Below are positions 1 through 42,567 of a stretch of 42,567 nt of DNA, piece after piece. Position 1 is the first letter of the stretch; the number at the start of each line of letters is the position of its first letter. The notes under the pieces were generated by a model that saw only the letters and a list, made by a program, of their open reading frames with translations, made no database searches and was not told the DNA's origin. Where the stretch lies: positions 1 to 42,567 of the IMG/VR virus record IMGVR_UViG_2534681936_000017. One strand, written 5' to 3'. The DNA comes from a virus. Lineage: Duplodnaviria; Heunggongvirae; Uroviricota; Caudoviricetes. The translations under genes were made by a program, and so were the position numbers.

Positions 1-144
1 CAGTTTTTTCAGTCCCGGCCTTTCGGACTTTGTACCGCTTATCTTGTCTTCAAAAATCAGCTCGCATCCTGCACAGTTCAGCGCATTACGTTGTAGATCT
101 GTGTTCTGGTCATTTGTTGACACACGTACATAGCCAATAAGCAT
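1..144 (-). CDS. pin: DNA invertase (Pin/Gin/Hin-family serine recombinase), N-terminal 48 codons only; gene runs off the left window edge
   Basis: Reverse-complement of 1-144 translates MLIGYVRVSTNDQNTDLQRNALNCAGCELIFEDKISGTKSERPGLKKL, the typical N-terminus of Pin/Gin/Cin invertases including the catalytic Ser in YVRVST. Not in the ORF track because truncated. Confidence 0.85.
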   Translation of the reverse strand, partial: MLIGYVRVSTNDQNTDLQRNALNCAGCELIFEDKISGTKSERPGLKKL

Positions 145-198
145 GGTAGCTCTCCCTGACAAAAGCAGGAATGATGCCATTTGCTCGTTATTTCTGTA

Positions 199-224
199 TT
201 TTCATAAACGTTGGTTTGGGAGAA
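199..224. repeat. Invertase crossover site (hix/gix-like 26-bp site), distal copy
   Basis: ttttcataaacgttggtttgggagaa; its reverse complement ttctcccaaaccaacgtttatgaaaa shares the first 14 nt with the site at 2069-2094 and fits the Hin/Gin half-site pattern (TTnTCnnAAACC, central AA). Confidence 0.7.
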
Positions 225-584
225 GCGGCAAAACGGGGGGTGGGAACAGGGGAAAATCAGATACCGGACATGGCTTCATTTAGTGGGGTGAGGGATTATT
301 ACGGAAAACAACTTTTGCCAGGAGGGTTGATACTTCAGTGGCTGACGATTCCATCAAGTGCAGCAGCCAAAGCTGTAACACTGAATAATGGTAATTATCA
401 GCTGTCAGGGTATAAATGGCCCCAGTCATTTGGTGTCCTGTTTGCTGTGTTTGCTACAAAAGTTTCTGGCTCGACTAACGAAGCATATGCAATCTCAGTT
501 AATCGTCACTCTACCGATGTAATTGTCACCTGGAATGCCCGTAAGGCTGATGATGTCCACATTTTAGGAATTGGGAAATTATGA
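199..584 (+). CDS. Alternative tail-fibre C-terminal domain (Sv'), promoterless; would fuse to the constant N-terminal part after inversion
   Basis: Frame is open from 150 through the crossover site (track ORF 171-584); no independent expression expected. Architecture inference by analogy to Mu G segment / e14 P segment. Confidence 0.55.
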
Positions 585-1000
585 AAATGAAATGGTCCCC
601 ATCTGTTCAGGGATTTTTCTCTGAAAATAACAGCGATATTCCCGATGATGCTTTCGATATTGAAGATGCTCTTTATTATGAACTTATGAATGGTCAGAGT
701 ACGGGGAAAATTATTATCAATAACCCGGATAACTACCCTGTACTTACTGAATATCCAGCGAAGACACAGGAACAGGAAATAGCTGAAGCGGAGGGAATGA
801 AAAGTATACTTATTGAACAGGCCAACGAATACATGAACAGTAAGCAATGGCCTGGTAAAGCCGCTATTGGTCGTCTGAAAGGTGAGGAACTGGCGCAATA
901 TAATTTGTGGCTGGATTACCTGGACGCACTGGAACTGGTGGATACCTCCAGTGCCCCAGATATTGAATGGCCTACGCCTCCGGCAGTTCAGGCCAGATGA
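581..1000 (+). CDS. Alternative tail-fibre assembly protein (U'-like)
   Basis: 139 aa; C-terminus [14 protein letters not shown] matches the conserved end of the minus-strand Tfa ([14 protein letters not shown]); start overlaps Sv' stop (ATGA). Confidence 0.7.
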
Positions 1001-1574
1001 CATCAGGCGCGGTGCTGGTATCTGTTGCCGCCACCGCGTCAATGTAATCCAGCACAGCGTTAAGCCGGTTTTTTTCTGCCTGCATCAGCTTCCGTCCGGC
1101 CTGTAATTTCAGCTGAATCAGACTAATGGAAGCCATTGCAGCATCAATCAGTGACTGGCGCTGTGCTTCTGCCGCTTCTACTGCGGCGCTATGCTGTGCC
1201 TCGGTATCCGTGACCCATTTCTCACCATCCCATTTATCGTATGGCGTTAACGGGACGATAGTGGTTGTATTTTCAGGGTAATCACCCGGAGCTGTGATTT
1301 CTTTTGATTCTCCCGTTTCGGTGTTATAGACAACTTCTCCGCGATGGTCTGGCACATATTCCCATGAGTTTAAATCTGCCGAACGGCAGATTGCATAACC
1401 AGCCTTATGTGTGCCAGGAGCATCTAAACAGGAATATGCAGGGATACCGACACCCACAGCAAGATATTCAGTTGATGTGGAAATATATTCCCGTGTTTCA
1501 CCATCATAATTATAAACGGTAATATCTCCCGCCTTTGTGGTGATGAGTTCCTTATTTAATATAGCTTTATCCAT
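972..1574 (-). CDS. Tail-fibre assembly protein (Tfa/U-like chaperone)
   Basis: 200 aa, directly after the tail-fibre gene; conserved Tfa C-terminal motif; its 3' end overlaps the 3' end of the convergent U' gene by 29 bp. Confidence 0.8.
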   Translation of the reverse strand: MDKAILNKELITTKAGDITVYNYDGETREYISTSTEYLAVGVGIPAYSCLDAPGTHKAGYAICRSADLNSWEYVPDHRGEVVYNTETGESKEITAPGDYPENTTTIVPLTPYDKWDGEKWVTDTEAQHSAAVEAAEAQRQSLIDAAMASISLIQLKLQAGRKLMQAEKNRLNAVLDYIDAVAATDTSTAPDVIWPELPEA

Positions 1575-2437
1575 CAGGCAGCCCTTACGATATAATTAAA
1601 AGCGATGTTACGAGGACGAGTTTCTGTACCTACATTTCCACTAATTTCGCCAAAACGTTTTACACTACGAGTACTAATAGCTCGTAGTGAGGAAGGTACC
1701 TTAATACCGGGTTCGTCTGTTTTAACTATTCCCCCGTCACCGTATGTAGCCAGTATTCCTGGGTTTACGCCTTCCCGTGCACTTCCTGCGGCGAGTCCGC
1801 CCCCTGTCCATAATTCCATATAGTGTGCATGGTCCAAAATTGTGTGTGGCTGCCAATTAAGCAAAGCGCGACCAGTATCAATCCCGCGACCGTCATCCCA
1901 GCCACGAATAAATTCACCGCGTAAATCAGGCAATTTATTGGTCGGGTAAGCCTTTGCCAGTTCCGGGTATTCTTCAGCAGAAAAAGCCGCACCATTGCAT
2001 TTCAGCCAGCCTGTTGGCGGTGTGGCTGAAGGCCACGGAACAGGTACACCAACGGGTAACGCTGAGCCTTCTCCCAAACCAAGGTTTTCGAGAGCCGTTT
2101 TCACCGTACCATCCGATTTGATATCGCCAAACGGATTTTGGCGACTCAGGTATTCAGCAGCAAACCCCGATCCCAGCAATTCAACAAAACCGGGCAGATC
2201 ACCATTATCAAGCACATCCCGTTGTGTTTTATCACTTACAAACTGGGCCAGAGCTGCAGCAATAAAGCTGGCCTGCCGAATAACCTTATTGACTTGCGCA
2301 CTGGATGCTTTCCCTGCTGTAAATCCGGATAAAAGCGCAGGCAACGCTTCCCATTCCTCCTGCGACATAACATTGGCATTTCGATCAGTTGCAAACGCTT
2401 TAAAGTCATTTTTCGCCATCAGAGTAATACTCCCCAT
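1574..2437 (-). CDS. Tail fibre protein (constant N-terminal part about aa 1-120 plus variable C-terminal part inside the invertible segment)
   Basis: 287 aa; position before Tfa; crossover site lies in-frame at codons 115-123. Confidence 0.75.
   Translation of the reverse strand: MGSITLMAKNDFKAFATDRNANVMSQEEWEALPALLSGFTAGKASSAQVNKVIRQASFIAAALAQFVSDKTQRDVLDNGDLPGFVELLGSGFAAEYLSRQNPFGDIKSDGTVKTALENLGLGEGSALPVGVPVPWPSATPPTGWLKCNGAAFSAEEYPELAKAYPTNKLPDLRGEFIRGWDDGRGIDTGRALLNWQPHTILDHAHYMELWTGGGLAAGSAREGVNPGILATYGDGGIVKTDEPGIKVPSSLRAISTRSVKRFGEISGNVGTETRPRNIAFNYIVRAA
2069..2094. repeat. Invertase crossover site (hix/gix-like), proximal copy inside the tail-fibre gene
   Basis: ttctcccaaaccaaggttttcgagag, imperfect dyad around central AA; resembles hixL TTCTTGAAAACCAAGGTTTTTGATAA from memory. 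Encodes ENLGLGE in the tail fibre; the distal site encodes INVGLGE in the alternate reading frame. Confidence 0.7.
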
Positions 2438-3099
2438 GCCCCTACATCAAAACCACTGATGAATTCGTTATCCATATCAAAACCAAAAAATTTAGAGCCT
2501 TCCGATGGAGTTTCCACCGAAGGTGTTTCAATGCCCCCCGCCCATACCCCGGCGGCTTTTACTGTGAGATACCCCTGTTTAATTGCCGCAATTAACTCAC
2601 GCGATACATCTGAAATATCAGCATCAGGAAAGACCCAGACCGATATCGTCATGTCCTGGTTATCGACTATCTGCATTCGCAGCCCGGATCCTGCTGTTGC
2701 AGCGTCAAGAATTGCTGGAAGCGAATCATTCCGTCCGTCCCAGTTATTAATCGCAATCTTCGCTTTAAGGATGACACGATAAGTTTCATCGCTGAGGTAC
2801 ATGTATCCGGAATCAGGATCGTATGGCCCCTGCCATACACCCTGATCATATCCAAGCCCGTCGGTATCCCAGCTGAAATAGACACCTGAGATAGGCTGGC
2901 TGACAACACGGCTACGCCCGATCCACAATCCCAGAATGTCAAGTTGCACACCAACCGCAGAGTCAATATCAAATGCAGTAATCAGCCCTCTGGTGGCCGC
3001 CGCAACATCAATAAGCGGCCGGGTCATCAGATCAACATGTGCAAGAAATTTAGGTTTGGTGACGTGGTAGTTCGTGATTAGTTCGGTGTATTTGCTCAT
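2419..3099 (-). CDS. Tail/baseplate protein (Mu gp48-like, putative)
   Basis: 226 aa, position between baseplate J-like gene and tail fibre. Confidence 0.5.
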   Translation of the reverse strand: MSKYTELITNYHVTKPKFLAHVDLMTRPLIDVAAATRGLITAFDIDSAVGVQLDILGLWIGRSRVVSQPISGVYFSWDTDGLGYDQGVWQGPYDPDSGYMYLSDETYRVILKAKIAINNWDGRNDSLPAILDAATAGSGLRMQIVDNQDMTISVWVFPDADISDVSRELIAAIKQGYLTVKAAGVWAGGIETPSVETPSEGSKFFGFDMDNEFISGFDVGAWGVLL

Positions 3100-4295
3100 G
3101 ACTCCACCGTTATAACGATATTTTCCGGGGTACAGGACGCAGATTCGTTGTATCTGATATCAATGTTTGATGACGACAAAGCCCCCGGGGATTTCCCAAT
3201 CGTCAGTTCCTGAATATCGTAATAGCGTGCATTCCCGCCACTCACCACGCCAAGATTCGCCGGTGAGTAAATGCGACTTAAAAGGACCGAATCACCAATC
3301 ATCAGACTATTGATATAGTCGGAAATAGCCTGCTGGATCTGCTGCCCTATCTGTGAGGTATAACCCGTAAAAACTTTTAATTTAATCCGGGCATAAACAG
3401 GTACATCACTGGAACGCGAGAATTTGATTACATGGGGATTGCCGTATTTATCCGGAACAGTAACGGATGTTGTACCGTGGGTGGCTGTCCCCTGGCCTTT
3501 ATTCCCTCTGATAGCCTGAGCAATATCCGTCACATCACCGCCATCCACAATTACAGCAACAGAGTGTGGCGGTAACCCGTTACCGTCCTCCGAACCAGTA
3601 TCGTTTTCATAGATTTTGTGGCGGGTTACACCGGTAACATTAGAAACAGCACCATCCAGTGCTTCAAATGGGGTTATTGATGGCAACGCAACACTTTGCG
3701 ACTGACGGATACGTAACTCCGCGTCAGTTTCTGCCGAAGTGCCCACAGTAGCCGCAGCAGGATTAGTTACCGAAACCCAGCCACGGGTTGGCGTATTAAT
3801 TTCAGTGATAGTTCCAGCCAGCGCCGCCACTGCACCACTGACGGAACATGTTGCGGTCGCCATCACTGTACCATCCACGCCGACCACTACTGAAGCAGGC
3901 AAACGCCATATCACATTATTACTGTCTTTCACGCTGCCATTAATGATGGTTGTTCCGGCAGTTCCTGCAAGAAGCAAATCAACCGTAGAGTTCGTCGCGC
4001 CTTTACGTGAAATACCATTTATTTTCACGTTACTGGTCAGTGCAGCCCCATAGCCGGTTGCCGGTGAAAAACAGTTGTAGACAGTTATCGCCATATTATT
4101 GGCATCATGAATCGCCAGCGCCATCAGAGCCACCATCTGGCCGTCTTTGCTGTCCGGTTCGAGGTAGGCATCACTGCCATAAATCTGCTGAAAATAGCTA
4201 ATCAGGGTGCTGAGTATCGTCTGATAATCAGGCGCACTGATCCCCTCCGCGGTTACCTTTGCAGATAAACCGAGAGAATCAAGGTTCAGAGCCAT
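3096..4295 (-). CDS. Baseplate J-like protein
   Basis: 399 aa, synteny within a V-W-J-type baseplate cluster; Ala/Gly/Thr-rich beta-type sequence. Confidence 0.65.
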   Translation of the reverse strand: MALNLDSLGLSAKVTAEGISAPDYQTILSTLISYFQQIYGSDAYLEPDSKDGQMVALMALAIHDANNMAITVYNCFSPATGYGAALTSNVKINGISRKGATNSTVDLLLAGTAGTTIINGSVKDSNNVIWRLPASVVVGVDGTVMATATCSVSGAVAALAGTITEINTPTRGWVSVTNPAAATVGTSAETDAELRIRQSQSVALPSITPFEALDGAVSNVTGVTRHKIYENDTGSEDGNGLPPHSVAVIVDGGDVTDIAQAIRGNKGQGTATHGTTSVTVPDKYGNPHVIKFSRSSDVPVYARIKLKVFTGYTSQIGQQIQQAISDYINSLMIGDSVLLSRIYSPANLGVVSGGNARYYDIQELTIGKSPGALSSSNIDIRYNESASCTPENIVITVES

Positions 4296-4648
4296 TACGC
4301 CTCCGATGTAACAGTCGTTATTCCATAAAGAGTGTCGATTTCAGCGGAAAACATGACACGTCGGGTCGTGGTATCCACCGTCGTATTGAAAGAGAGGATT
4401 GATTTAACGCCCCGCGTTTCGAGGATGCGCTTACGGATCGCCAGGTTGTAGGTTTCAGGCTTCTGCTTACCGAGTACGGACTGGATCCACGGAGTCCCCT
4501 CGGTGGTGTCGAGAAACCATTGCCCATACCACAATTCGAATCGCGTTTTTACCGCCTGCGCCACGGCCTCCGGTGAGTTAATCAGCCAGGTGTCATCACC
4601 GCTGCCAAAGGTGTAATCGCCATCGGCGTCTTCACGTCTGTATCGCAT
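4295..4648 (-). CDS. Baseplate protein (gpW/gp25-like, putative)
   Basis: 117 aa, position between spike/V-like and J-like genes. Confidence 0.5.
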   Translation of the reverse strand: MRYRREDADGDYTFGSGDDTWLINSPEAVAQAVKTRFELWYGQWFLDTTEGTPWIQSVLGKQKPETYNLAIRKRILETRGVKSILSFNTTVDTTTRRVMFSAEIDTLYGITTVTSEA

Positions 4649-5400
4649 CAGTTTACCCCGTCGGTACTGCTTCCACCGCGCTGAACACCACCATGAGTGT
4701 GCGTATCATCGATTGGCTTGCCGTTAGCCTTCACGCTCCCCAAGAACTCAACAGCACCAGTGATTTTTGAAGCCACACCAGAAACCACAGACCCCACCAT
4801 GCCCCCCATCCAGGTTAACAGGCCATGAATGGTTACTTTCTCAGAAAAATCAGCCAGAGGGGCAACCACATCAAGACCACCCGGAGCGACAATTTTAATT
4901 TTCCTGGTATCAGGATTAAGCTCAAAATAGGTGCTGCCGTCGTCACTACGCAACTGTGTGGCACTGGTATTAATACCGCTCATCTTCCTCGCCTGCGACT
5001 GGGGACCGACAATACAAAATGCATCCGATAAATCATGCATTCTGTCATCGACAGGCTCCTGTATCCCGCCACTCTGCCACCAGAAATCAATACAACGATC
5101 GGCAAAAATCACCAGACATTCATCACCGGCTTTAACCGGGAACGTTAGCGTACAGCCTCCGCCGCGCGGAAATACCACTGGCACATCCACCAGCAGGGGT
5201 AATGTCGTCGACTGGTTGATTCCATTTGAGTCCGGCTCATAGCCTTTAATCGCTGGTTGAACAACTACCGTTACCGTGTCCTGATCAAATGACTGGACGA
5301 TACCGGGCATAGAAACACGCAGCACCGACATGACAGAACCAGCAAGTCTTACATCGGCCTGTTCTTTACTGCCGAGTTGAGAGGAAAGTGAAACTGGCAT
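4648..5400 (-). CDS. Baseplate assembly/spike protein (gpV-like)
   Basis: Track ORF starts with GTG at 5445; ATG at 5400 with GGAG 5 nt upstream is the likelier start (MPVSLSSQ...). Confidence 0.55.
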   Translation of the reverse strand: MPVSLSSQLGSKEQADVRLAGSVMSVLRVSMPGIVQSFDQDTVTVVVQPAIKGYEPDSNGINQSTTLPLLVDVPVVFPRGGGCTLTFPVKAGDECLVIFADRCIDFWWQSGGIQEPVDDRMHDLSDAFCIVGPQSQARKMSGINTSATQLRSDDGSTYFELNPDTRKIKIVAPGGLDVVAPLADFSEKVTIHGLLTWMGGMVGSVVSGVASKITGAVEFLGSVKANGKPIDDTHTHGGVQRGGSSTDGVN

Positions 5401-5471: not shown

Positions 5472-5879
5472 TCAGTATCCAGTAATCGTGTCTGCCAGCA
5501 GCTCATTCTTATAATCTGACAAGAGTTTTAGTGCCAGTGCAGTATTATCACAATCAGCTTCTCCAGTAGCAGCAAAGATAGTCAACTTCACCAACTCCAT
5601 GGAGGTGTTAAGTTCATAGCCATTCATTAGCAAGAAAATGCTGGTGGCCTGGAAAGCTGTTCGCTTGTTGGCATCGTTAAAAGCGTGAGACTTCGCTATT
5701 GCTACCATATACATAGCGGCAAATTTAAATAAATCCTCACAGCCTTCATATATGTGCAGATTATGCACCCTGTTCAGGGCACCTTCGAGCTTACCTATAT
5801 CAGGCTGCCCGCTGTTCGGCAGCGTACTTTTCTGAATCGCAATAACCTCATCAACCGAAAGAAACGTAATCTCAGCCAT
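5472..5879 (-). CDS. doc: Doc toxin (Fic/Doc family, death-on-curing)
   Basis: 135 aa; contains HAFNDANKRTAF matching the Doc/Fic motif Hx(F)x(D/N)ANKR; start overlaps phd stop (TAATG). Confidence 0.85.
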   Translation of the reverse strand: MAEITFLSVDEVIAIQKSTLPNSGQPDIGKLEGALNRVHNLHIYEGCEDLFKFAAMYMVAIAKSHAFNDANKRTAFQATSIFLLMNGYELNTSMELVKLTIFAATGEADCDNTALALKLLSDYKNELLADTITGY

Positions 5880-6292
5880 TATTTATCTTCCAGTTTTTTT
5901 ATAATTTCCGCATGCTTAGTCTGAGTATGTTGCAAAGCTTTAATAAATGACTCTGATACGCCCTGCAGGGCAAGTGCAGCATTGGCAGCCTTCATCATTG
6001 CCTGGCGCGCCTCATCAGACTGCAGAAGGACATCTAATTGCTTAGTAAACTTCATGACTCCCTCCGTTACCTGTGGGGATAAATTAGATGAAATTAACTG
6101 TGCAAGATGCGCATCTATCGTTTTGTTTTGTGGCTTAATTTCTTTTCCAGACACCACCTTATCAACGGTTTTTGCACTGATAACAGTATCAGGCTTCCCC
6201 CGTTGCGTTACCGTTACACTCTCACCTGAGCGTAACAATTCCAGCGTGGCAGATAAATCCGAACGCATTTGTGTATAAGTAATGGTTTTCAT
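5879..6292 (-). CDS. phd: Phd/YefM-family antitoxin
   Basis: N-terminus MKTITYTQMRSDLSATLELLRSGESVTVTQRGKPDTVISA resembles YefM/Phd; start at 6292 has a GAGAGGG RBS; unusually long (137 aa) for this family. Confidence 0.8.
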   Translation of the reverse strand: MKTITYTQMRSDLSATLELLRSGESVTVTQRGKPDTVISAKTVDKVVSGKEIKPQNKTIDAHLAQLISSNLSPQVTEGVMKFTKQLDVLLQSDEARQAMMKAANAALALQGVSESFIKALQHTQTKHAEIIKKLEDK

Positions 6293-6303
6293 AGCACCCT
6301 CTC

Positions 6304-6315
6304 TGTACATGTACA
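6304..6315. promoter_or_regulatory. Perfect 12-bp palindrome TGTACATGTACA, candidate Phd/Doc operator
   Basis: Lies 12 nt upstream of the phd start codon on the coding strand. Confidence 0.35.
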
Positions 6316-25990: not shown

Positions 25991-26146
25991 AATGACGCCC
26001 TCTGGTGGTTTCTTAATAACTCACCACCGACGACGCCAATCATCTGGTGGTGAACTGTGCAGGGTTGGCGTAACCGGGAAACCGACCGGCGCGGATCTCT
26101 CCGCCCCCACACAGCCCACCATAATTCAGATGTGCGCGTGCATACG

Positions 26147-26175
26147 ACAATAAAAAACACGCTCGCGGCGTGTAT
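26147..26175 (-). terminator. tR'-like terminator downstream of the late promoter
   Basis: Minus strand acacgc-N5-gcgtgt hairpin followed by TTTTTTATT, about 60-80 nt downstream of the predicted promoter. Confidence 0.5.
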
Positions 26176-26234
26176 CTGTCGCGGTCTCTATCCAGGACGC
26201 CAATCCCGACGCCAGATTTTGCTGACGCGTGAGG

Positions 26235-26264
26235 AATATAGCCCCGGATAACAGATTGAGTCAA
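26235..26264 (-). promoter_or_regulatory. Late promoter pR'-like (-35 TTGACT, 18-bp spacer, -10 TATATT); expected Q-utilisation region
   Basis: Hexamers read on the minus strand; -35 overlaps the Q stop codon, as lambda pR' sits just after Q. Confidence 0.4.
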
Positions 26265-28262: not shown

Positions 28263-28418
28263 TTACTTCTCAGATTCGTAGTCTACGAAGACAGCGACCT
28301 CCGTCTGGCCGGTTCGGATTCGTACCTCGCAGAGGTCTTTCCTCGTTACCAGTGCCGTCACAATGACGGTTAAACAGATGACGATCAGGGCGATTAACAT
28401 CGCCTTGTGCTGCTTCAT
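28263..28418 (-). CDS. hok: Hok/Gef-family type I toxin
   Basis: MKQHKAMLIALIVICLTVIVTALVTRKDLCEVRIRTGQTEVAVF... is the Hok/HokD signature. Track ORF 28263-28475 extends upstream in the same frame. Confidence 0.85.
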   Translation of the reverse strand: MKQHKAMLIALIVICLTVIVTALVTRKDLCEVRIRTGQTEVAVFVDYESEK

Positions 28419-28439
28419 AGACTGCTCCTCCTTGCCTTT

Positions 28440-28540
28440 CGGCACGTAAGAGGCTAACCTATGTGTGTAGAGCATAGATATGGCCTCAGATTAATGTTAA
28501 GCGTCTTGCAGGACGCGTAATGTTAACTGGGGCTTTTCTC
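28440..28540 (+). ncRNA. sok: Sok-like antisense RNA (approximate placement only)
   Basis: Inferred from hok/sok locus organisation: antisense to the hok leader around the translation initiation region. Ends not determined. Confidence 0.3.
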
Positions 28541-28708
28541 TGTCTGCCTTACAGTGGCATGCCCGAGGCAGACAGCCTCAAGCACCCGCAGCAATTTTAC
28601 TTAACTCCCCTTTTCCCGCAAACCGTTTTTATCCCCAGCGGCAAATCGAATACACCACCAGCGCCACCGCCATTGCGATTCCTGCCGTTGTGAATGCTTC
28701 AGGCCAGG

Positions 28709-32401: not shown

Positions 32402-32824
32402 TCAATGCACTACGACAGAATCGCCGGGCGACCCACCACCGCTGAAATGTGCTTTCCGGTAAACGGCCTGGACTGCATCATCATGCGCATCAATTGCCGT
32501 ACTCAACGCTTCCTGCGCCGCCAGTAATGCACGGCGTTCCAGGGTATCGAAGATGCAGAGTCGGTGACGCAGCTCGCGCGGAAGAATTGCCAGAACCGCA
32601 GGGATCAGTTTCTGAATTTTTTCCCTTTGCGCTTTCGTTTCACCTTTCAACCAACGGTGATAGATATTCTGCTGATTGTTCCAGTCCTTGCCTGGTACCA
32701 GGGGCAATTCGCCGCCCCCCTGGCGCAGATATTCTTCAGTAATTGCGTTAGCGACCCACGCCTGCCCTTTTTCGGCTGCCAGGGCTAACAACACTGATTC
32801 GATGTGCTCATGCCTGATTTTCAT
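32402..32824 (-). CDS. YdaT-like protein (Rac-type cII-position gene)
   Basis: 140 aa directly after the Cro-like gene, overlapping its stop. Confidence 0.5.
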   Translation of the reverse strand: MKIRHEHIESVLLALAAEKGQAWVANAITEEYLRQGGGELPLVPGKDWNNQQNIYHRWLKGETKAQREKIQKLIPAVLAILPRELRHRLCIFDTLERRALLAAQEALSTAIDAHDDAVQAVYRKAHFSGGGSPGDSVVVH

Positions 32825-34512: not shown

Positions 34513-34750
34513 ATTCATTTCCTTACTGGTTGTGTGAGAACTTCAGTAAAGATACCACCAAAGCCCGGAGGTGGTGAAATAAAACCGGGCACAACACGAA
34601 GGCGCATTTCCGGTATTCATAAAGAGTCGGTCTTGTCTGTTAAATTTAAATGGTGGGAGTGCGCCTCCGGTTGTAAATAACGACATTGCTGTGTGTAGTC
34701 TTTAGCGGCATCAGTTCTACTCCGTGGCTGCCCTGCCGCCCCTTTTTAAA

Positions 34751-35753: not shown

Positions 35754-38700
35754 ATGAGCACCGATAAACAAGTTTACCCACTGTATTACGAAGCAAAAAA
35801 TGACAAAGTAAGAAAACGTCTCGGTATTAAAGGCGGTTTCTACTGGGCTGAAGCGAAAAAATTATCCATTGCCATCTCCCGTGGTGCTGTTGCGATTGAC
35901 GATGCTGGCTACGATGAAGATGACTTTAAAAAACCTGTTCGCGTCAATTTGCCCGTTGTTGATGACCTTCCACCAGAAGGCGTATTTGATACGGAATTCT
36001 GCAACCGTTACGAAAAAGGCGGGGAAGATGGCATCACAATGGTATTTATCGCGCCCTCATCCTCTGCGCAGGACAAACCAGCCAGCACTGACAATACCAA
36101 TGTTAATGGCGAAGACATGACTGAGATTGAGGAGAATATGCTACTCCCGATTTCTGACCAAGAGCTGCCCATTCGCTGGCTTGCTCAACACGGCAGCGAA
36201 AAACCGGTAACGCACGTTTCACGCGACGAACTCCAGACATTACATATTGCACGGGCTGAAGAACTACCAGCTGTTACTGCCCTGGCTGTTTCCCACAAAA
36301 CCAGCCTGCTCGACCCGCTGGAGATTCGCGATCTTCACAGACTGGTTCGTGATACTGACAAAGTTTTCCCTAATCCAGGCAATTCAAGTCTGGGGCTGAT
36401 GACTGCTTTTTTCGAAGCATACCTGGACGCAGACTACACCGATCGCGGTCTGCTGACAAAAGAGTGGATGAAAGGAAATCGTGTTTCACGCATCACTCGC
36501 ACGGCTTCCGGTGCTAATGCTGGCGGCGGGAACCTCACCGATCGCGGCGAAGGTTTCGTCCACGATCTGACGTCACTGGCACGCGATGTAGCCACTGGCG
36601 TACTGGCCCGTTCAATGGACGTGGACATTTATAACCTTCATCCGGCACACGCTAAACGTGTCGAGGAAATTATCGCTGAAAATAAACCGCCCTTTTCTGT
36701 TTTCCGCGACAAATTCATCGCCATGCCTGGCGGGCTGGATTATTCCCGCGCCATCGTGGTTGCGTCCGTAAAAGAAGCACCAATTGGGATCGAGGTTATC
36801 CCCGCACACGTCACTGAATATCTGAACAAAGTACTGACTGAAACCGATCATGCCAACCCTGATCCGGAAATCGTAGATATTGCCTGCGGTCGCTCCTCTG
36901 CCCCGATGCCGCAGCGGGTAACAGAAGAAGAAAAACAGGATGATGAAGAAAAACCGCAACCATCTTGCGCAATGGCAGATGAACAGGCAACGGCTGAAAC
37001 AGTGGAACCGGATGCAACTGAACATCATCAGGACACGCAGCCGCTGGATGCTCAGTCACAGGTAAATTCTGTTGATGCGAAATATCAGAAACTGCGGGCA
37101 GAACTCCATGAAGCCCGGAAAACCATTCCGCCCAAAAATCCTGTCGATGCCGACAAATTGCTGGCTGCCTCTCGCGGAGAATTTGTTGAGGGGATTAGCG
37201 ACCCGAATGATCCGAAATGGGTGAAGGGGATTGAAACCCGCGATTCAGTGAACCAGAACCAACAAGAATCGGAACAGAACGACCAGAAAGCGGAACAAAA
37301 CAGCCCAAATGCGTTACAAAACGAGCCAGAAACGAAACAGCCTGAACCAGTGGCGCAACAGGAAGTGGAAAAAGTTTGCAATGCCTGCGGTCAGTCTGGC
37401 GGGGATAACTGCCCTGACTGTGGTGCGGTGATGGGCGACGCAACATATCAGGAAACATTCGATGACGAGAATCAGGTTGAAGTTCGGGAAAATGAGCCGG
37501 AGAAAATGGAAGGCGCTGAACATCCGCACAATGAGAATGCTGACAGCGATCCGCATCGCAATTGCAGTGATGAAACTGGCGAAGCGTCAGCTCCTGTAGC
37601 AACTGAAATCATGTGGCCGTCATATTTCGAGCCAGGCCGCTATGAAAACCTCCCGAACGAGGTTTATCACTCCGCCAACGGAATAAGCAGCACGATGCTG
37701 AAGGATGCCCGTATCAGCCTGATGTATTACCACGGGCGGCACATTGCCGGAACTATTCCGAACGAGGAAAGTGATGCACTGCTGCGTGGGCGGATCATTC
37801 ACAGCTATGTTCTGGAAACGGATAAATTCGCTGATGAATATGCCATTCCGGTACCGGTTCCTGAATATGTGGTTACTACTTCTAACGAACTGATCGCCAT
37901 CATTAAAAAACACAATGCCAGTCTGCCAGCACTGATGACACCAGAGCAGATGAAAGAGTGGATCGAAAGCTACAACAGCACTCTTATACAGCCACTGTCT
38001 GTAAGTGCTGGGGCCGAAGAAACAGGCATCCTTTACGGTTCGCTTCCGGTGGAATTTCGGCGTATTCCTGAGGGGGAAAAACACACAGCATCAGCAATGA
38101 AAGCCTGTATTAAAGAATACAACGCAAGCCTCCCTCCTCTGTTGAAAACCAGTGGAGCACGGGAGCAGCTTCTGGATCAAATTGAAACTGTAGATCCAGA
38201 ACTGGCAAAAAAAGAACGTGCTAAATCTTTGCCTTACAACATCAGTGGCACAAAAGAGCAATTAACCGAAATCGCACGGAAAATTCGCCCGGAACTGGTG
38301 ACACTGGAGGACTGGCAAAAACGCCAGCAAGAAGAAAACGCCGGGAAAACGTTTATCAGTCCGGATATGTATGAACAGGCAAAAAATATTCACGCGGCAC
38401 TGCAAAACAATACCGATGCAGCAAGGCTACTCAACCACCCGGATCGCAAATCTGAAATCAGCTATTTCGGGTTTGATGAAGAAACCGGGCTGGAAATCAG
38501 GGTCCGTCCTGATATCGAAATCCGGCTGCCATACGAAAGCATTTGCGCTGACGTGAAGTCAGTCAGCCTCGGTTATGTGCGGCAGGAACGACTTAAAGAT
38601 CGCCTGCACCGTGAAATTATTGAGCGTGATTATCACCTCAGCGCCGCAATGTATTGCGATGTGGCAAACCTGGACAAATTTTTCTGGATCTTCGTCAACA

Positions 38701-38900
38701 AAGATGCTGGCTATCACTGGGTGGCAGTCGTGGAAGCCTCGCAGGAACTCCTTGAACTTGGTCGACAGGAATATCGCCGGACGCTACACCAGATAAACGA
38801 AGCGCTGGAGACAAACAACTGGCCAGCACCGATTACCGAAAGTTATACCGACGAATTAAACGACTTTGATCTTCGTCGTCTTGAAGCACTGAGCATCTGA
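35754..38900 (+). CDS. recE: RecE-family exonuclease (exonuclease VIII-like), mosaic with a divergent C-terminal nuclease domain
   Basis: 1048 aa; central region ([16 protein letters not shown]...[12 protein letters not shown]...[18 protein letters not shown]) matches K-12 RecE as recalled; the C-terminal about 400 aa differ from K-12 RecE. Confidence 0.8.
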
Positions 38901-38911
38901 GGAAGGACACA

Positions 38912-39964
38912 ATGAACGAATTAACTCAACAAGAAAATATTAACTCTAATGTTGCGGTTTTCAGCCCTCAGTCTCTGGCTGCAATTCAGACGTTTTCTCA
39001 GGTAATGGCTTCCGGCATGGCTACTGTACCGGAACACCTCCGGGGAAATCCATCAGACTGCATGGCCATAACCATGCAGGCGATGCAGTGGCAAATGAAC
39101 CCTTACGCAGTAGCTCAGAAAACTTTCGTTGTGAATGGTGTACTCGGATATGAAGCGCAACTGGTTAATGCCGTAATCAGTACTCGTGGGCCGTTAACCG
39201 GGCGTATTGAATATGACTGGTTCGGGCCGTGGGAAAAAATTATCGGGAAATTTGAAATCAGGAAGAACGACAAAGGGAAAGAATATCGTGTACCTGGCTG
39301 GAAGCTGGTCGATGAAAACGGGATCGGAGTTCGCGTCCAGGCAACACTACGCGGAGAGAGCAAACCACGCGTACTGGAGTTACTTCTGGCGCAGGCCAGA
39401 ACACGTAACTCAACGTTATGGGCCGATGATCCTCGTCAGCAGCTTGCCTATCTGGCACTGAAACGCTGGGCGCGCCTTTATTGCCCTGAAGTGATTCTTG
39501 GAGTGTACACCCGGGACGAACTGGACGAACCACAGGAAAAAATCATTAATCCGGTTCAGGAACATAAAAACACATCCGCCTGCCGTGCGGAACGTGAAAC
39601 AACAATTATTGAGCAGGATGTCGGGGAAAACTGGATCAGTGCTTTCCGTGAACGTATTGAGCAGGCACAAAGCACCGGAGAAACAACAGCACTTCGGCAG
39701 GAAGTGGAAGAGCATAAAAATACACTTGGCGCTCTCTATACGGAACTTAAAGGAAAAGTGGTTCAGCGTCATCACCGTCTCAATGCTATTGCCCGTATTG
39801 AGAAGATGATAAATGACCTGCCTTCATCAGGTGATCCGGAAGCAGAACAAAAATTTACTGCTCTGGAAAATACGCTGAATGCTGCACGACCACATCTGGG
39901 AGAATTATATGAGGCGTATAAAACGACACTGACAGATATGAAACCAGAATATATCGGCTCCTGA
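38912..39964 (+). CDS. recT: RecT/Red-beta-family single-strand annealing protein
   Basis: 350 aa directly after recE (RBS GAGGAAGG); segment QLAYLALKRWARLYCPEVILGVYTRDE resembles the conserved Bet/RecT core; not the K-12 RecT sequence. Confidence 0.6.
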   Translation: MNELTQQENINSNVAVFSPQSLAAIQTFSQVMASGMATVPEHLRGNPSDCMAITMQAMQWQMNPYAVAQKTFVVNGVLGYEAQLVNAVISTRGPLTGRIEYDWFGPWEKIIGKFEIRKNDKGKEYRVPGWKLVDENGIGVRVQATLRGESKPRVLELLLAQARTRNSTLWADDPRQQLAYLALKRWARLYCPEVILGVYTRDELDEPQEKIINPVQEHKNTSACRAERETTIIEQDVGENWISAFRERIEQAQSTGETTALRQEVEEHKNTLGALYTELKGKVVQRHHRLNAIARIEKMINDLPSSGDPEAEQKFTALENTLNAARPHLGELYEAYKTTLTDMKPEYIGS

Positions 39965-40027
39965 TATTTACTATGGCGGTGTAGCCTCGCCGCCATAACA
40001 AAACTTTATTTTATGAGAGAAAAGACA

Positions 40028-40222
40028 ATGCGGTATGAAAAAGTCAAACCATGTCCATTTTGTGGTTGTCCATCAGTAACGGTGAAAGCCATTTCAGGAT
40101 ATTACCGAGCGAAGTGTAACGGGTGCGAATCCCGAACCGGCTATAGTGGAAGTGAAAAAGAAGCACTTGCAAGATGGAATAAACGAACTACTGGAAATAA
40201 TAATGGAGGTGTTCATGTATAA
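40028..40222 (+). CDS. lar: Lar/RalR-like restriction alleviation protein
   Basis: 64 aa from ATG 40028; MRYEKVKPCPFCGCPSVTVKAISGYYRAKCNGCESRTGY... with zinc-ribbon cysteines. Confidence 0.65.
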   Translation: MRYEKVKPCPFCGCPSVTVKAISGYYRAKCNGCESRTGYSGSEKEALARWNKRTTGNNNGGVHV

Positions 40223-40403
40223 AATTACCGCCACTATTGAAATGGAAGGTGGCACACCTACTAACTGGACAAGATATTCAAAATCTAAATTAACGAAATC
40301 AGAATGCGAAAAAATGCTCTCAGGGAAAAAAGAAGCAGGCGTTTCCAGAGAGCAGAAAGTAAAACTGATAAATTTTAATTGCGAGAAACTTCTGTCCTCG
40401 TGA
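40215..40403 (+). CDS. Small hypothetical protein (YdaC position)
   Basis: 62 aa, RBS GGAGG 6 nt upstream; overlaps lar stop. Confidence 0.4.
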   Translation: MYKITATIEMEGGTPTNWTRYSKSKLTKSECEKMLSGKKEAGVSREQKVKLINFNCEKLLSS

Positions 40404-40503: not shown

Positions 40504-40791
40504 ATGGCAATGAATCTTGTGACACTCAAAACGTGGGGAAAACTCAGATATCCGGATAACCCACCATCAATATCAACGCTGAGACGATGGGCAAGGAATG
40601 GAAACATTTATCCTGCACCTGAACTACACGGGAGGAGTTACAGGGTGGTTCCGGAGGCTTTCTATATCAACCCAAATAAGGTTGATACCGATATAACACA
40701 CCATCAGCCTAATGGGCGACAAGGGAGAGACAGTCCGTTACTGGAGAAGTTAAAACATGCAGCGGAAAAAATACGATCCCAATTTGCCTAA
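40504..40791 (+). CDS. xis: Excisionase (Xis-like)
   Basis: LVTLKTWGKLRYPDNPPSISTLRRWARNGNIYPAPELHGRSYRV follows the lambda Xis pattern; 3' end overlaps the int start. Confidence 0.6.
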   Translation: MAMNLVTLKTWGKLRYPDNPPSISTLRRWARNGNIYPAPELHGRSYRVVPEAFYINPNKVDTDITHHQPNGRQGRDSPLLEKLKHAAEKIRSQFA

Positions 40792-41833
40792 AAACTTAAC
40801 ATATCGAAGGAGGGACAAAGCATATTACTGGCGCAACCCTCTGACGAAAGAAGAATTTACACTAGGTAAAATTTCAAGGAGAGATGCAGTAGCGCAGGCA
40901 ATTGAAGCAAATCATTATATATACAAAAACTACTCTCCTGCTGCCTTAATTGAAAAGCTTAAAGGGTTCGACTCATTTACTATGGCAGACTGGATTGAAC
41001 GTTACAAAACGATTCTTATAAGGAGAAAAGTGTCCAGAAATACTTATAAAATTCGGGTAAATCAACTGGAGACAATAAAAGAAAAATTGGGAGAGATTTT
41101 ACTGACAGAAATAACCACTCGCCATATTGCCGAGTTTCTTGATTTGTGGATTGAAGGAGGGAAAAACACAATGGCAGGATCAATGCGTTCTGTGTTGTCT
41201 GATATGTTTCGCGAGGCCATTGTTGAAGGACGTATATCTCAAAATCCAGTAACGCCAACAAGAGCACCGAAAATAGTAGTTACAAGAGAACGACTGAAAC
41301 TAAAGACATACAACTGCATCAGGGAGGCAGCAGATCAACTTCCGGCATGGTTCCCATTAGCTATGGATTTAGCCCTTGTAACAGGACAACGTCGTGAAGA
41401 CATAACGAATATGCGGTTCAGTGATATTTATGATGATCGTCTCCACATCAGGCAAATTAAGACAGGAATGATGATTGCTATCCCCCTGTCACTGAGCCTT
41501 CCTGTCGCTGGTCTACGGCTTGGTACAGTAGTTGAACGGTGCCGCCTGGTAAGCCGGGGAGATTATCTAATCAGTGCCGGAATTAGAAAAAACAGCCCTG
41601 ACGGCAGCATTCACCCGGATGGCCTGACAAAAAAATTTGTCGCAGCCAGAAAATTAACAGGTATCCAGTTCAGTGAAAACCCACCAACTTTTCACGAGAT
41701 CAGAAGTCTGGCTGGACGATTGTACAAAGAAACATGTGGAGAAGAATTTGCTCAGCGTCTACTTGGCCACACATCGGAGAAGACAACAAAAATGTATCTT
41801 GATGAGAGAGAAAAAACGTACTTACTGCTCTGA
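40757..41833 (+). CDS. int: Tyrosine integrase (lambda Int family)
   Basis: 358 aa; resembles lambda Int throughout ([16 protein letters not shown]..., [12 protein letters not shown]..., [13 protein letters not shown]). Confidence 0.9.
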
Positions 41834-41880: not shown

Positions 41881-41998
41881 AAAAAAGACCGGAATACAGA
41901 AATTCGAGTAAATTTCGGGGGATTTCGGGGAGACGTTTGCAACTGATTGATTTTAAATACAATTAAAAAAAGACCGAATACGATTCCTGTATTCGGTC
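41881..41998. repeat. Candidate att arm region: direct repeats AAAAAAGACCGGAATAC (41881-41897) and AAAAAAAGACCGAATAC (41965-41981), tandem ATTTCGGGG x2 (41912-41930), 10-bp-stem hairpin (41972-41998)
   Basis: Repeats lie within 170 bp of the int stop, where arm-type Int sites are expected; core site not identifiable without the other prophage end. Confidence 0.3.
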
Positions 41999-42157
41999 CA
42001 GGGAAATGGCTCTTGGGAGAGAGCCGTGCGCTAAAAGTTGGCATTAATGCAGGCTTAGTTGCCTTGCCCTTTAAGAATAGATGACGACGCCAGGTTTTCC
42101 AGTTTGCGTGCAAAATGGTCAATAAAAAGCGCGGTGGTCATCAGCTTAAATGTTAAA

Positions 42158-42225: not shown

Positions 42226-42567
42226 TTAACAGAGTTTTTCAGCTCGTTCTATAAACGGTGCCAGACTCATTTTTTCGCCGGGATTGTTGGGATCATCAAT
42301 CTGAATCACCGAAATGGGTTGGGCTTTAGTCTTCCCACTGGCAACTTCCTTCTGTGCGACATCGTTTAAAGGATACTGCACGAGGGTACTTGGGTTGATG
42401 ACATACAAAGCATTACCCGGTCGGCAAGTCAGCATCACCTCTTCGCGATTAAACGCCCATTTGTCTTTACCCACTTCAAAACGGCTGACGGTAATCACCT
42501 GCGGTGCAGCCAGCGCCGCTGCAGAACTGGTGAGTAACAGAAACGCCAGAATACTTTTTTTCATCAT
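42226..42567 (-). CDS. Host-encoded small periplasmic protein (signal peptide; YebY/DUF-type, tentative)
   Basis: 113 aa with N-terminal signal peptide [22 protein letters not shown]; lies beyond the int/att region, so probably chromosomal flank. Confidence 0.55.

Follow-up and report, generated by a model that had tools for sequence, protein, structure and literature searches.

The 42,567-nucleotide stretch of viral DNA analyzed here (IMG/VR record IMGVR_UViG_2534681936_000017, Caudoviricetes; the whole stretch is hereafter called the window) carries at its left end the beginning of pin, a gene for a serine DNA invertase, followed by two opposed sets of a tail-fiber C-terminus and an assembly chaperone that are enclosed between two inverted 26-base-pair (bp) sites. 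An earlier reading made from the letters of this DNA alone (the sequence-only reading) had proposed a Pin-type invertible tail-fiber switch within positions 1-2437, and we found every element that it named at the place given, the sites being identical at 26 of 26 positions to the pix sites of prophage e14 of Escherichia coli K-12 and the Pin fragment 100% identical to PinE. The locus is very probably a working copy of the Pin/pix inversion switch, alternating two tail-fiber tips of an E. coli prophage. The Pin/pix switch itself has been described before, and RefSeq already annotates this prophage, with pinE and tfaE among its genes. The features of the locus are listed below, where ON marks the cassette that is joined to the constant part of the fiber gene and OFF the other one, and where DEC5A is an E. 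coli O55:H7 strain with a nearly identical prophage.

1-144, minus strand: pin, serine DNA invertase, first 48 codons; cut by the window edge, the other 136 codons lying left of position 1
60-123, minus strand: putative recombinational enhancer within the pin coding sequence, with two candidate Fis-binding 15-mers (G-N13-C)
171-179, minus strand: candidate extended -10 element of the pin promoter, TGGCATCAT on the minus strand
199-224, plus strand: pin-proximal crossover site, 26 bp (outer half 199-210, core TT 211-212, inner half 213-224)
212-2081, no strand: invertible segment, 1870 bp core to core; reverse-complementing exactly this stretch gives the DEC5A locus
213-584, plus strand: OFF fiber C-terminus, 123 codons starting with GLGE, without the constant N-terminal part (from the listing of open reading frames, ORFs)
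581-1000, plus strand: OFF-cassette chaperone, tail-fiber assembly protein of 139 amino acids (Caudo_TAP, E=6e-24)
972-1574, minus strand: ON-cassette chaperone, TfaE-type tail-fiber assembly protein of 200 amino acids (Caudo_TAP, E=4e-31)
1574-2419, minus strand: ON fiber gene, 281 amino acids, with a Collar domain; crosses the right-hand site
1574-2080, minus strand: variable C-terminal part of the ON fiber, residues 114-281 (Pfam Collar, E=3e-15, residues 124-171)
2069-2094, minus strand: second crossover site, 26 bp, inside the tail-fiber gene (inner half 2069-2080, core AA 2081-2082, outer half 2083-2094)
2081-2419, minus strand: constant N-terminal fiber part, residues 1-113; its start codon overlaps the stop codon of a DUF2612 baseplate gene

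The pin-proximal site reads TTTTCATAAACGTTGGTTTGGGAGAA on the plus strand and divides into TTTTCATAAACG-TT-GGTTTGGGAGAA, and the site in the fiber gene, read on the minus strand, is CTCTCGAAAACCTTGGTTTGGGAGAA, dividing into CTCTCGAAAACC-TT-GGTTTGGGAGAA. The two are thus inverted 26-bp sites with the same core, as in invertase systems: they agree at 21 of the 26 positions, their inner halves (GGTTTGGGAGAA) are identical, and the core TT, which is AA on the other strand, corresponds to the central AA described in the sequence-only reading. They form the arms of the strongest inverted repeat of positions 1-3000 (206-225 and 2068-2087; 20 nucleotides, 95% complementary). A 19-nucleotide pattern of the shared part matched just these two sites in the whole 42.6 kb, the expected number of matches being 0.04. 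When the sites of e14 were taken straight from the E. coli K-12 genome sequence, each site of the window was identical at all 26 positions to its positional equivalent, one beside pinE and the other inside stfP; a comparison to pix had been recommended in the sequence-only reading. A separate observation concerns two related loci, from E. coli and Shigella flexneri (L008 and L009), where a run of about 17 C (TTCTCCCCCCCCCCCCCCCCCGAC) stands about 40-60 nucleotides upstream of the invertase start, in the place in which the pin-proximal site is expected; the site may have been lost there, or the assembly may be poor at that point.

Of the two cassettes, the collar-domain (StfE/TfaE-type) one is on in the window, leaving the gp53-like one off. 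The orientation had been called S/U-on in the sequence-only reading, which borrows a label of phage Mu by analogy and means that the cassette is joined to the constant part; in the terms of e14, the StfE/TfaE-type cassette is on. Both cassettes fuse in frame to the constant part, as had been proposed: the fusion present in the window encodes 281 amino acids, and a simulated inversion gives an open fusion of 236 amino acids, exactly the length of the gene annotated as 'phage tail protein' at that position in DEC5A (711 bp, WP_171877822.1). RefSeq places the fiber start of DEC5A and of strain CB9615 at the ATG at 2419, while an alternative ATG at 2437 lies within the upstream DUF2612 gene. Counted from the annotated start, the constant part has 113 amino acids, not the 120 of the sequence-only reading, and GLGE occupies residues 114-117; GLGE begins at residue 120 only when the count is made from 2437. 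The GLGE motif is encoded by the inner half-sites and is therefore part of the invertible DNA, the crossover falling inside the codon for Leu113. The two chaperone genes converge and overlap by 29 bp, at 972-1000, as previously described from the sequence.

The cassettes differ in their relatives. The OFF C-terminus gave a weak match to Gp53-like_C (E=0.0025, under the Pfam cut-off), and the region 208-996 is 95.7% identical to the tail-fiber and assembly genes of phage Cartapus; the ON region, 920-2092, is about 92% identical to the stf/tfa genes of HK97. Judged by these matches, the combination of an HK97-like ON cassette with a Cartapus-like OFF cassette is the usual mosaic exchange of fiber tips.

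The evidence that the segment does invert comes from a comparison among strains, namely the window against the complete genomes of DEC5A and FDAARGOS_946. In a search of complete E. coli genomes, these two matched positions 206-2087 at 99.9%, with the matches ending exactly at the repeats, and in DEC5A the flanks matched at 100% on the strand opposite to that of the segment. When we inverted 212-2081 in silico, positions 1-5087 of the window aligned to DEC5A with 0 mismatches over 5087 bp, as compared with 1342 mismatches before the inversion. Both sites are thus the exact breakpoints of a natural inversion relative to DEC5A. Over the whole 42.6 kb, the window and the DEC5A prophage differ by this inversion and by one indel in a run of C, with no substitution. 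FDAARGOS_946 carries the same flipped arrangement, and the fusion of 236 amino acids between the constant part and the gp53-like C-terminus is annotated both there and in DEC5A. The sequence-only reading had suggested looking for both orientations, and by this comparison both occur in essentially identical DNA. Because the flipped and unflipped copies are without any substitution in 42.6 kb, the inversion is extremely recent, and the two orientations in otherwise identical prophages provide a clean natural record of it. The indel lies at 32714-32721, with 7 C in the window and 8 C in DEC5A; ydaT is intact in the window (32402-32824, minus strand, 140 amino acids), and RefSeq marks ydaT of DEC5A as frameshifted. 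This difference could be a homopolymer sequencing error or reflect a slippage-prone tract.

Inverted repeats can mislead assemblers, and the draft assemblies of relatives often break at the site, so that one might ask whether the difference in orientation from DEC5A and FDAARGOS_946 arose during assembly. The repeat shared by the two sites is only 20 nucleotides long, however, which is too short to confuse modern assemblers unless both orientations are present in the reads, and breaks at so short a repeat themselves point to mixed orientation. Moreover, the breakpoint falls exactly at the core dinucleotide of sites that are identical to those of a system seen to invert experimentally. We consider an assembly artefact extremely improbable.

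The contigs of the related loci broke just upstream of the invertase gene in 24 of 80 cases (L005-L084), in draft genomes of many Enterobacterales, ending 63-262 nucleotides upstream of the pin-like start codon, and at least 11 contigs begin inside the 26-bp site itself (L011, L012, L013, L020, L026, L029, L033, L042, L052, L063 and L072). Because the shared repeat is far shorter than assembly k-mers, it is likely that the cultures sequenced were mixtures of the two orientations, and a contig that breaks at the site in a draft assembly can be used as a practical sign of active inversion. In clonal K-12 cultures, whole-genome sequencing and polymerase chain reaction (PCR) have shown the e14 P segment to invert at these repeats (PMC4272514, where Plasterk and van de Putte 1985 is cited for the e14 P segment and PinE).

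The invertase gene is represented in the window by its first 48 codons, read from 144 to 1 on the minus strand and translated as MLIGYVRVSTNDQNTDLQRNALNCAGCELIFEDKISGTKSERPGLKKL. The fragment matches Pfam Resolvase (E=8e-13), includes Ser9, the catalytic serine of the VRVST motif, and is identical at 48 of 48 residues to E. coli K-12 PinE. The prophage of DEC5A, identical to the window over 1-225, encodes a PinE of 184 amino acids with both Resolvase (E=1.5e-51) and HTH_7 (E=5e-14) domains, which over its full length is 96% identical to K-12 PinE, and FDAARGOS_946 likewise has a full gene of 184 codons with both domains. The two parts expected of an invertase are therefore found in different places, the N-terminal Resolvase domain in the window and the C-terminal HTH_7 domain outside it, in the DEC5A protein. 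Basic residues of helix B that are specific to the invertases are conserved among them at Lys47, Lys/Arg48 and Lys/Arg51 in the numbering of Hin (PMC3798978). Their counterparts K46 and K47 of Pin lie within the window (PGLKKL), and R50 is seen beyond the window edge in K-12 PinE and the closest relatives (PGLKKLLRTL). The sequence-only reading had called the switch intact, which agrees with the full pinE of DEC5A, but the invertase of the window is cut by its edge, and its intactness cannot be read from the window.

A recombinational enhancer, which the sequence-only reading did not list, would be expected inside the 5' end of pin. Native systems of this family have theirs at that place, acting in cis through two Fis sites about 47-48 bp apart. 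In Hin, the enhancer consists of two Fis sites 47 bp apart that lie inside the invertase gene, about 100 bp from hixL (PMC3798978). We analyzed the diversity of synonymous codons over 80 loci encoding Pin relatives, one genome per species, which gave 77 non-redundant sequences. Expressed as a fraction of the maximum, synonymous diversity had a background of 0.86 at codons 37-130 but dropped to 0.25 in codons 8-12 and to 0.47 in codons 25-30; third positions were conserved at 86-97% in the first patch and 68-95% in the second, compared with about 35-60% elsewhere. The value of the first patch (codons 8-12) was reached in 2 of 20,000 permutations. The candidate Fis-binding 15-mers, which coincide with the two patches, are GTGTCAACAAATGAC at 109-123 and GTGCAGGATGCGAGC at 60-74, with their centers 49 bp apart and the nearer one 95 bp from the center of the pin-proximal site. 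Because the patches of synonymous constraint and their geometry agree with the Hin enhancer, we place a putative Fis-binding enhancer at about 60-123, for which the case is good, but not conclusive.

Upstream of the coding sequence, 31 of 66 non-redundant relatives have a TGGCA element at -35 (±1), counted from the start codon of the invertase. All variants of this conserved element fit an extended -10 of the form TGn-cAnnnT, and by inference we take 171-179 as a candidate extended -10 of the pin promoter; a sigma-70 consensus scan gave no call on this element. A sigma-54 promoter, with the TGGCA at -35 serving as the -24 element, was considered and rejected, as GG-N10-GC is present in only 11 of the 66 relatives. 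A scan of positions 1-2600 for sigma-70 promoters and terminators gave nothing that exceeded the expectation from shuffled sequence.

Some points weigh against a working switch in a functional phage. Only 48 of the 184 pin codons are inside the window, so that its own invertase could carry a defect; the second patch of constraint is moderate when taken alone (1788 of 20,000 permutations reach 0.45 at codons 25-29); and the best G-N13-C 15-mers are spaced at 49 bp as compared with the 47 bp in Hin. As for virion production, the identical relative has a frameshift annotated in an early gene, that for DUF1627. The missing part of pin in particular leaves room for a frozen relic, in which an earlier inversion was followed by the loss of the switch in this genome, for example through a defect in pin past the window edge, leaving the orientation fixed. 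The rarity of the arrangement could be taken in the same sense, since none of 5426 complete E. coli genomes had the exact pin-side junction of the window, the closest reaching 98.1%. In a census of the same genomes, the window-type pin-side junction was covered to at least 80% in 26 genomes and the flipped type in 931, although these counts do not give a clean ratio of orientations, as the collar/StfE-type cassette is common in many prophages including e14 and the gp53-like one is rarer. A long-dead switch is, on the other hand, difficult to reconcile with the lack of any substitution between the flipped and unflipped versions or with the intact pinE of the identical relative, and no mutation separates the two sites or the enhancer patches from those of e14, whose switch is functional. 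The outcome that the sequence-only reading had named as refuting the switch, a single orientation together with a disrupted invertase gene, is not what the DEC5A locus shows. Invertases of this family can also act on one another's sites. In e14, the inversion of the P segment, quantified by quantitative PCR, is driven by PinE and also in trans by PinQ (PMC12529663). Taken together, we regard the frozen relic as very unlikely and return to a switch that works.

If the locus operates as Hin, Gin, Cin and Pin do, dimers of Pin would bind the two inverted 26-bp sites, and on supercoiled DNA Fis bound to the enhancer in the 5' end of pin would join them in an invertasome. The 1870-bp segment would then be flipped by a staggered cut at the AA/TT core, a rotation by 180 degrees and religation. 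With the fiber split at codon 113/114, either C-terminus would extend the constant N-terminus, which is attached to the baseplate, and would become part of the late-operon transcript together with its own chaperone. Progeny phage would accordingly carry one of two receptor-binding tips, a form of host-range bet-hedging. We infer the dependence on Fis, the subunit rotation and the effect on host range by analogy with these systems. The receptors of the two tips would be of interest for the host range of phages in the O55:H7/O157:H7 lineage, while the importance of the locus beyond annotation is small, the system being a textbook Pin system.

The OFF C-terminus is also part of a longer frame that deserves consideration. 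This stub ORF, 171-584, encodes 137 amino acids and has in-frame ATG codons at 171 and 174 that are preceded by AGGA, and it is homologous to the stfE stub beside pin in e14. There, inversion is reported to create StfE2, composed of the stfE stub and the C-terminus of StfP, and StfE2 to lower the adsorption of T2 (PMC12529663). By comparison with StfE2, the inversion might mainly serve the lysogen, with the stub ORF giving a free receptor-binding fragment that blocks other phages. However, the gp53-like cassette has no blastp match to the variable part of StfP, and the result with T2 is therefore not transferable. We also tried the stub ORF as a conserved gene and rejected it, as a frame that is open with a start was present in only 15 of 47 related loci, which we estimate to be near chance, and in the other 32 a stop codon precedes any start. 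Its ATG codons are better explained as the reverse complement of the conserved TGGCAT at the candidate -10 of pin, and no promoter reading into the stub was found in the sigma-70 scan of 1-2600. The full set of virion genes, which e14 does not have, fits the classical function of such switches. A role mainly in the lysogen seems most improbable. It is likewise highly improbable that the OFF cassette is translated from the stub, such that the switch would serve both the host range of the phage and the defense of the host, with the receptor occupied and other phages excluded. For annotation, the ORF of 137 amino acids is best treated as the promoterless half of a fiber gene and not as a separate gene.

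Seen as a phage host-range switch, the locus is closest to the P segment of e14. In addition to the identical sites and Pin fragment, the order of the elements is the same (constant fiber part, site, first cassette, convergent chaperones, second cassette, site, pin), and tfaP and tfaE of K-12 share the same 29-bp overlap. Identity to the K-12 counterparts is 90.5% for the chaperone of 200 amino acids (to TfaE) and 59% for the collar-type variable part (to the StfE fragment). In contrast, the OFF chaperone of 139 amino acids is just 49.6% identical to K-12 TfaP, its gp53-like C-terminus is unrelated in blastp to the variable tip of StfP, and the fiber N-terminus resembles K-12 StfP only over its final ~30 residues, just ahead of the crossover (86.7%). 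The neighbor of the fiber gene is DUF2612 here but YmfQ (DUF2313) in e14, the insertion is at yebY/sdsR-pphA as compared with icd, and a full virion gene set stands against the remnant of e14. Between the core dinucleotides, the segment spans 1870 bp here and, measured in the same way, 1827 bp in K-12; for e14, the P segment has been given as 1797 bp (PMC12529663). The pix sites and PinE are thus those of e14, whereas the two cassettes are not the same pair and the prophage does not reside at icd. On the basis of these comparisons, the locus is the Pin/pix module again, carried by another phage and joined to another fiber N-terminus, with just one of its two cassettes familiar, and is not e14 itself. 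The inversion of e14 by PinQ, described as a defense against phages (PMC12529663), resembles the present case in using the same repeats (TTGGTTTGGGAGAAGG) and in having a homologous stub ORF beside pin, but the cassette behind the stub is here unrelated to the StfP tip that forms StfE2.

More distant systems share the principle. The Gin and Cin systems have 26-bp sites and an enhancer in the 5' end of the invertase gene. As in the G segment of Mu with Gin and the C segment of P1 with Cin, the invertase gene stands beside a segment that swaps a fiber C-terminus and a chaperone; the G and C segments, whose inversion changes the host range, are longer (3 kb and 4.2 kb, respectively; PMC12529663) than the 1870 bp here, and the fiber sequences differ. 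Hin of Salmonella, with its hix sites, belongs to the same recombinase subclass and shares the mechanism and the two 26-bp sites, and the constraint patches of the window appear to match the geometry of its Fis sites, about 47 bp apart and about 100 bp from the proximal site. Hin, however, flips a promoter together with its own gene and thereby switches flagellin, whereas here the invertase lies outside the segment and coding sequence is swapped.

Among the related records, vB_EcoM-606R2 (ON470579.1, L085) is deposited in GenBank as a 'phage' and contains the host gene yfhH together with a DNA invertase coding sequence of 315 bp. We considered this record and its relatives as proof of virions and rejected them, as the presence of yfhH makes it look like a predicted prophage; no paper on vB_EcoM-606R2 was found.

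The 42.6-kb window represents a prophage of myovirus type, ~42.7 kb long, of an E. coli O55:H7-like chromosome, inserted between yebY, which adjoins the sdsR/ryeA small RNA (sRNA) genes, and pphA. The integrase gene lies at 40757-41833 and is followed by the SdsR/RyeA sRNA genes and then, at the right end of the window, by the host gene.

41961-42105: SraC/RyeA and SdsR/RyeB, overlapping sRNA genes, directly beside the integrase gene
42226-42567: host yebY

On the other side, pinE is in DEC5A the final phage gene ahead of pphA. An 11-nucleotide repeat, ACAGGAATCGT, is present at the sRNA terminator, and a second copy lies beyond pinE in DEC5A. This arrangement suggests that the prophage is integrated at the 3' end of the SraC/RyeA-SdsR/RyeB sRNA locus. 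As to the core of the attachment site, the two ends of the DEC5A prophage share only direct repeats of 11 nucleotides, which do not define the ends.

The annotated genes comprise an integrase, an excisionase, a Rac-like block of recE, recT, ralR and kilR, repressor-like helix-turn-helix genes, and those for replication, lysis, terminase, portal, capsid, sheath, tube, tape measure, baseplate and spike, with the switch at the end of the tail operon. The sequence-only reading had spoken of an apparently complete phage, which is plausible and reasonable from this gene content. A gene pair for a Phd/YefM antitoxin (143 amino acids) and a Doc ('death-on-curing') toxin (135 amino acids) is located amid the tail and baseplate genes (5472-6310, minus strand), with the spike gene on one side and the upstream baseplate genes on the other, and looks like an inserted accessory module. 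The early region also contains a number of regulatory RNAs and genes, within 26043-26241, 28413-28587, 34690-34741 and 35754-40399. The RNAs include a C4 antisense RNA with its a1/b1 targets and isrK, a hok/sok module, DicF and the RalA antitoxin RNA, and the Rac-like genes are recE (1048 amino acids), recT (350 amino acids) and ralR, which is paired with the RalA antitoxin RNA.

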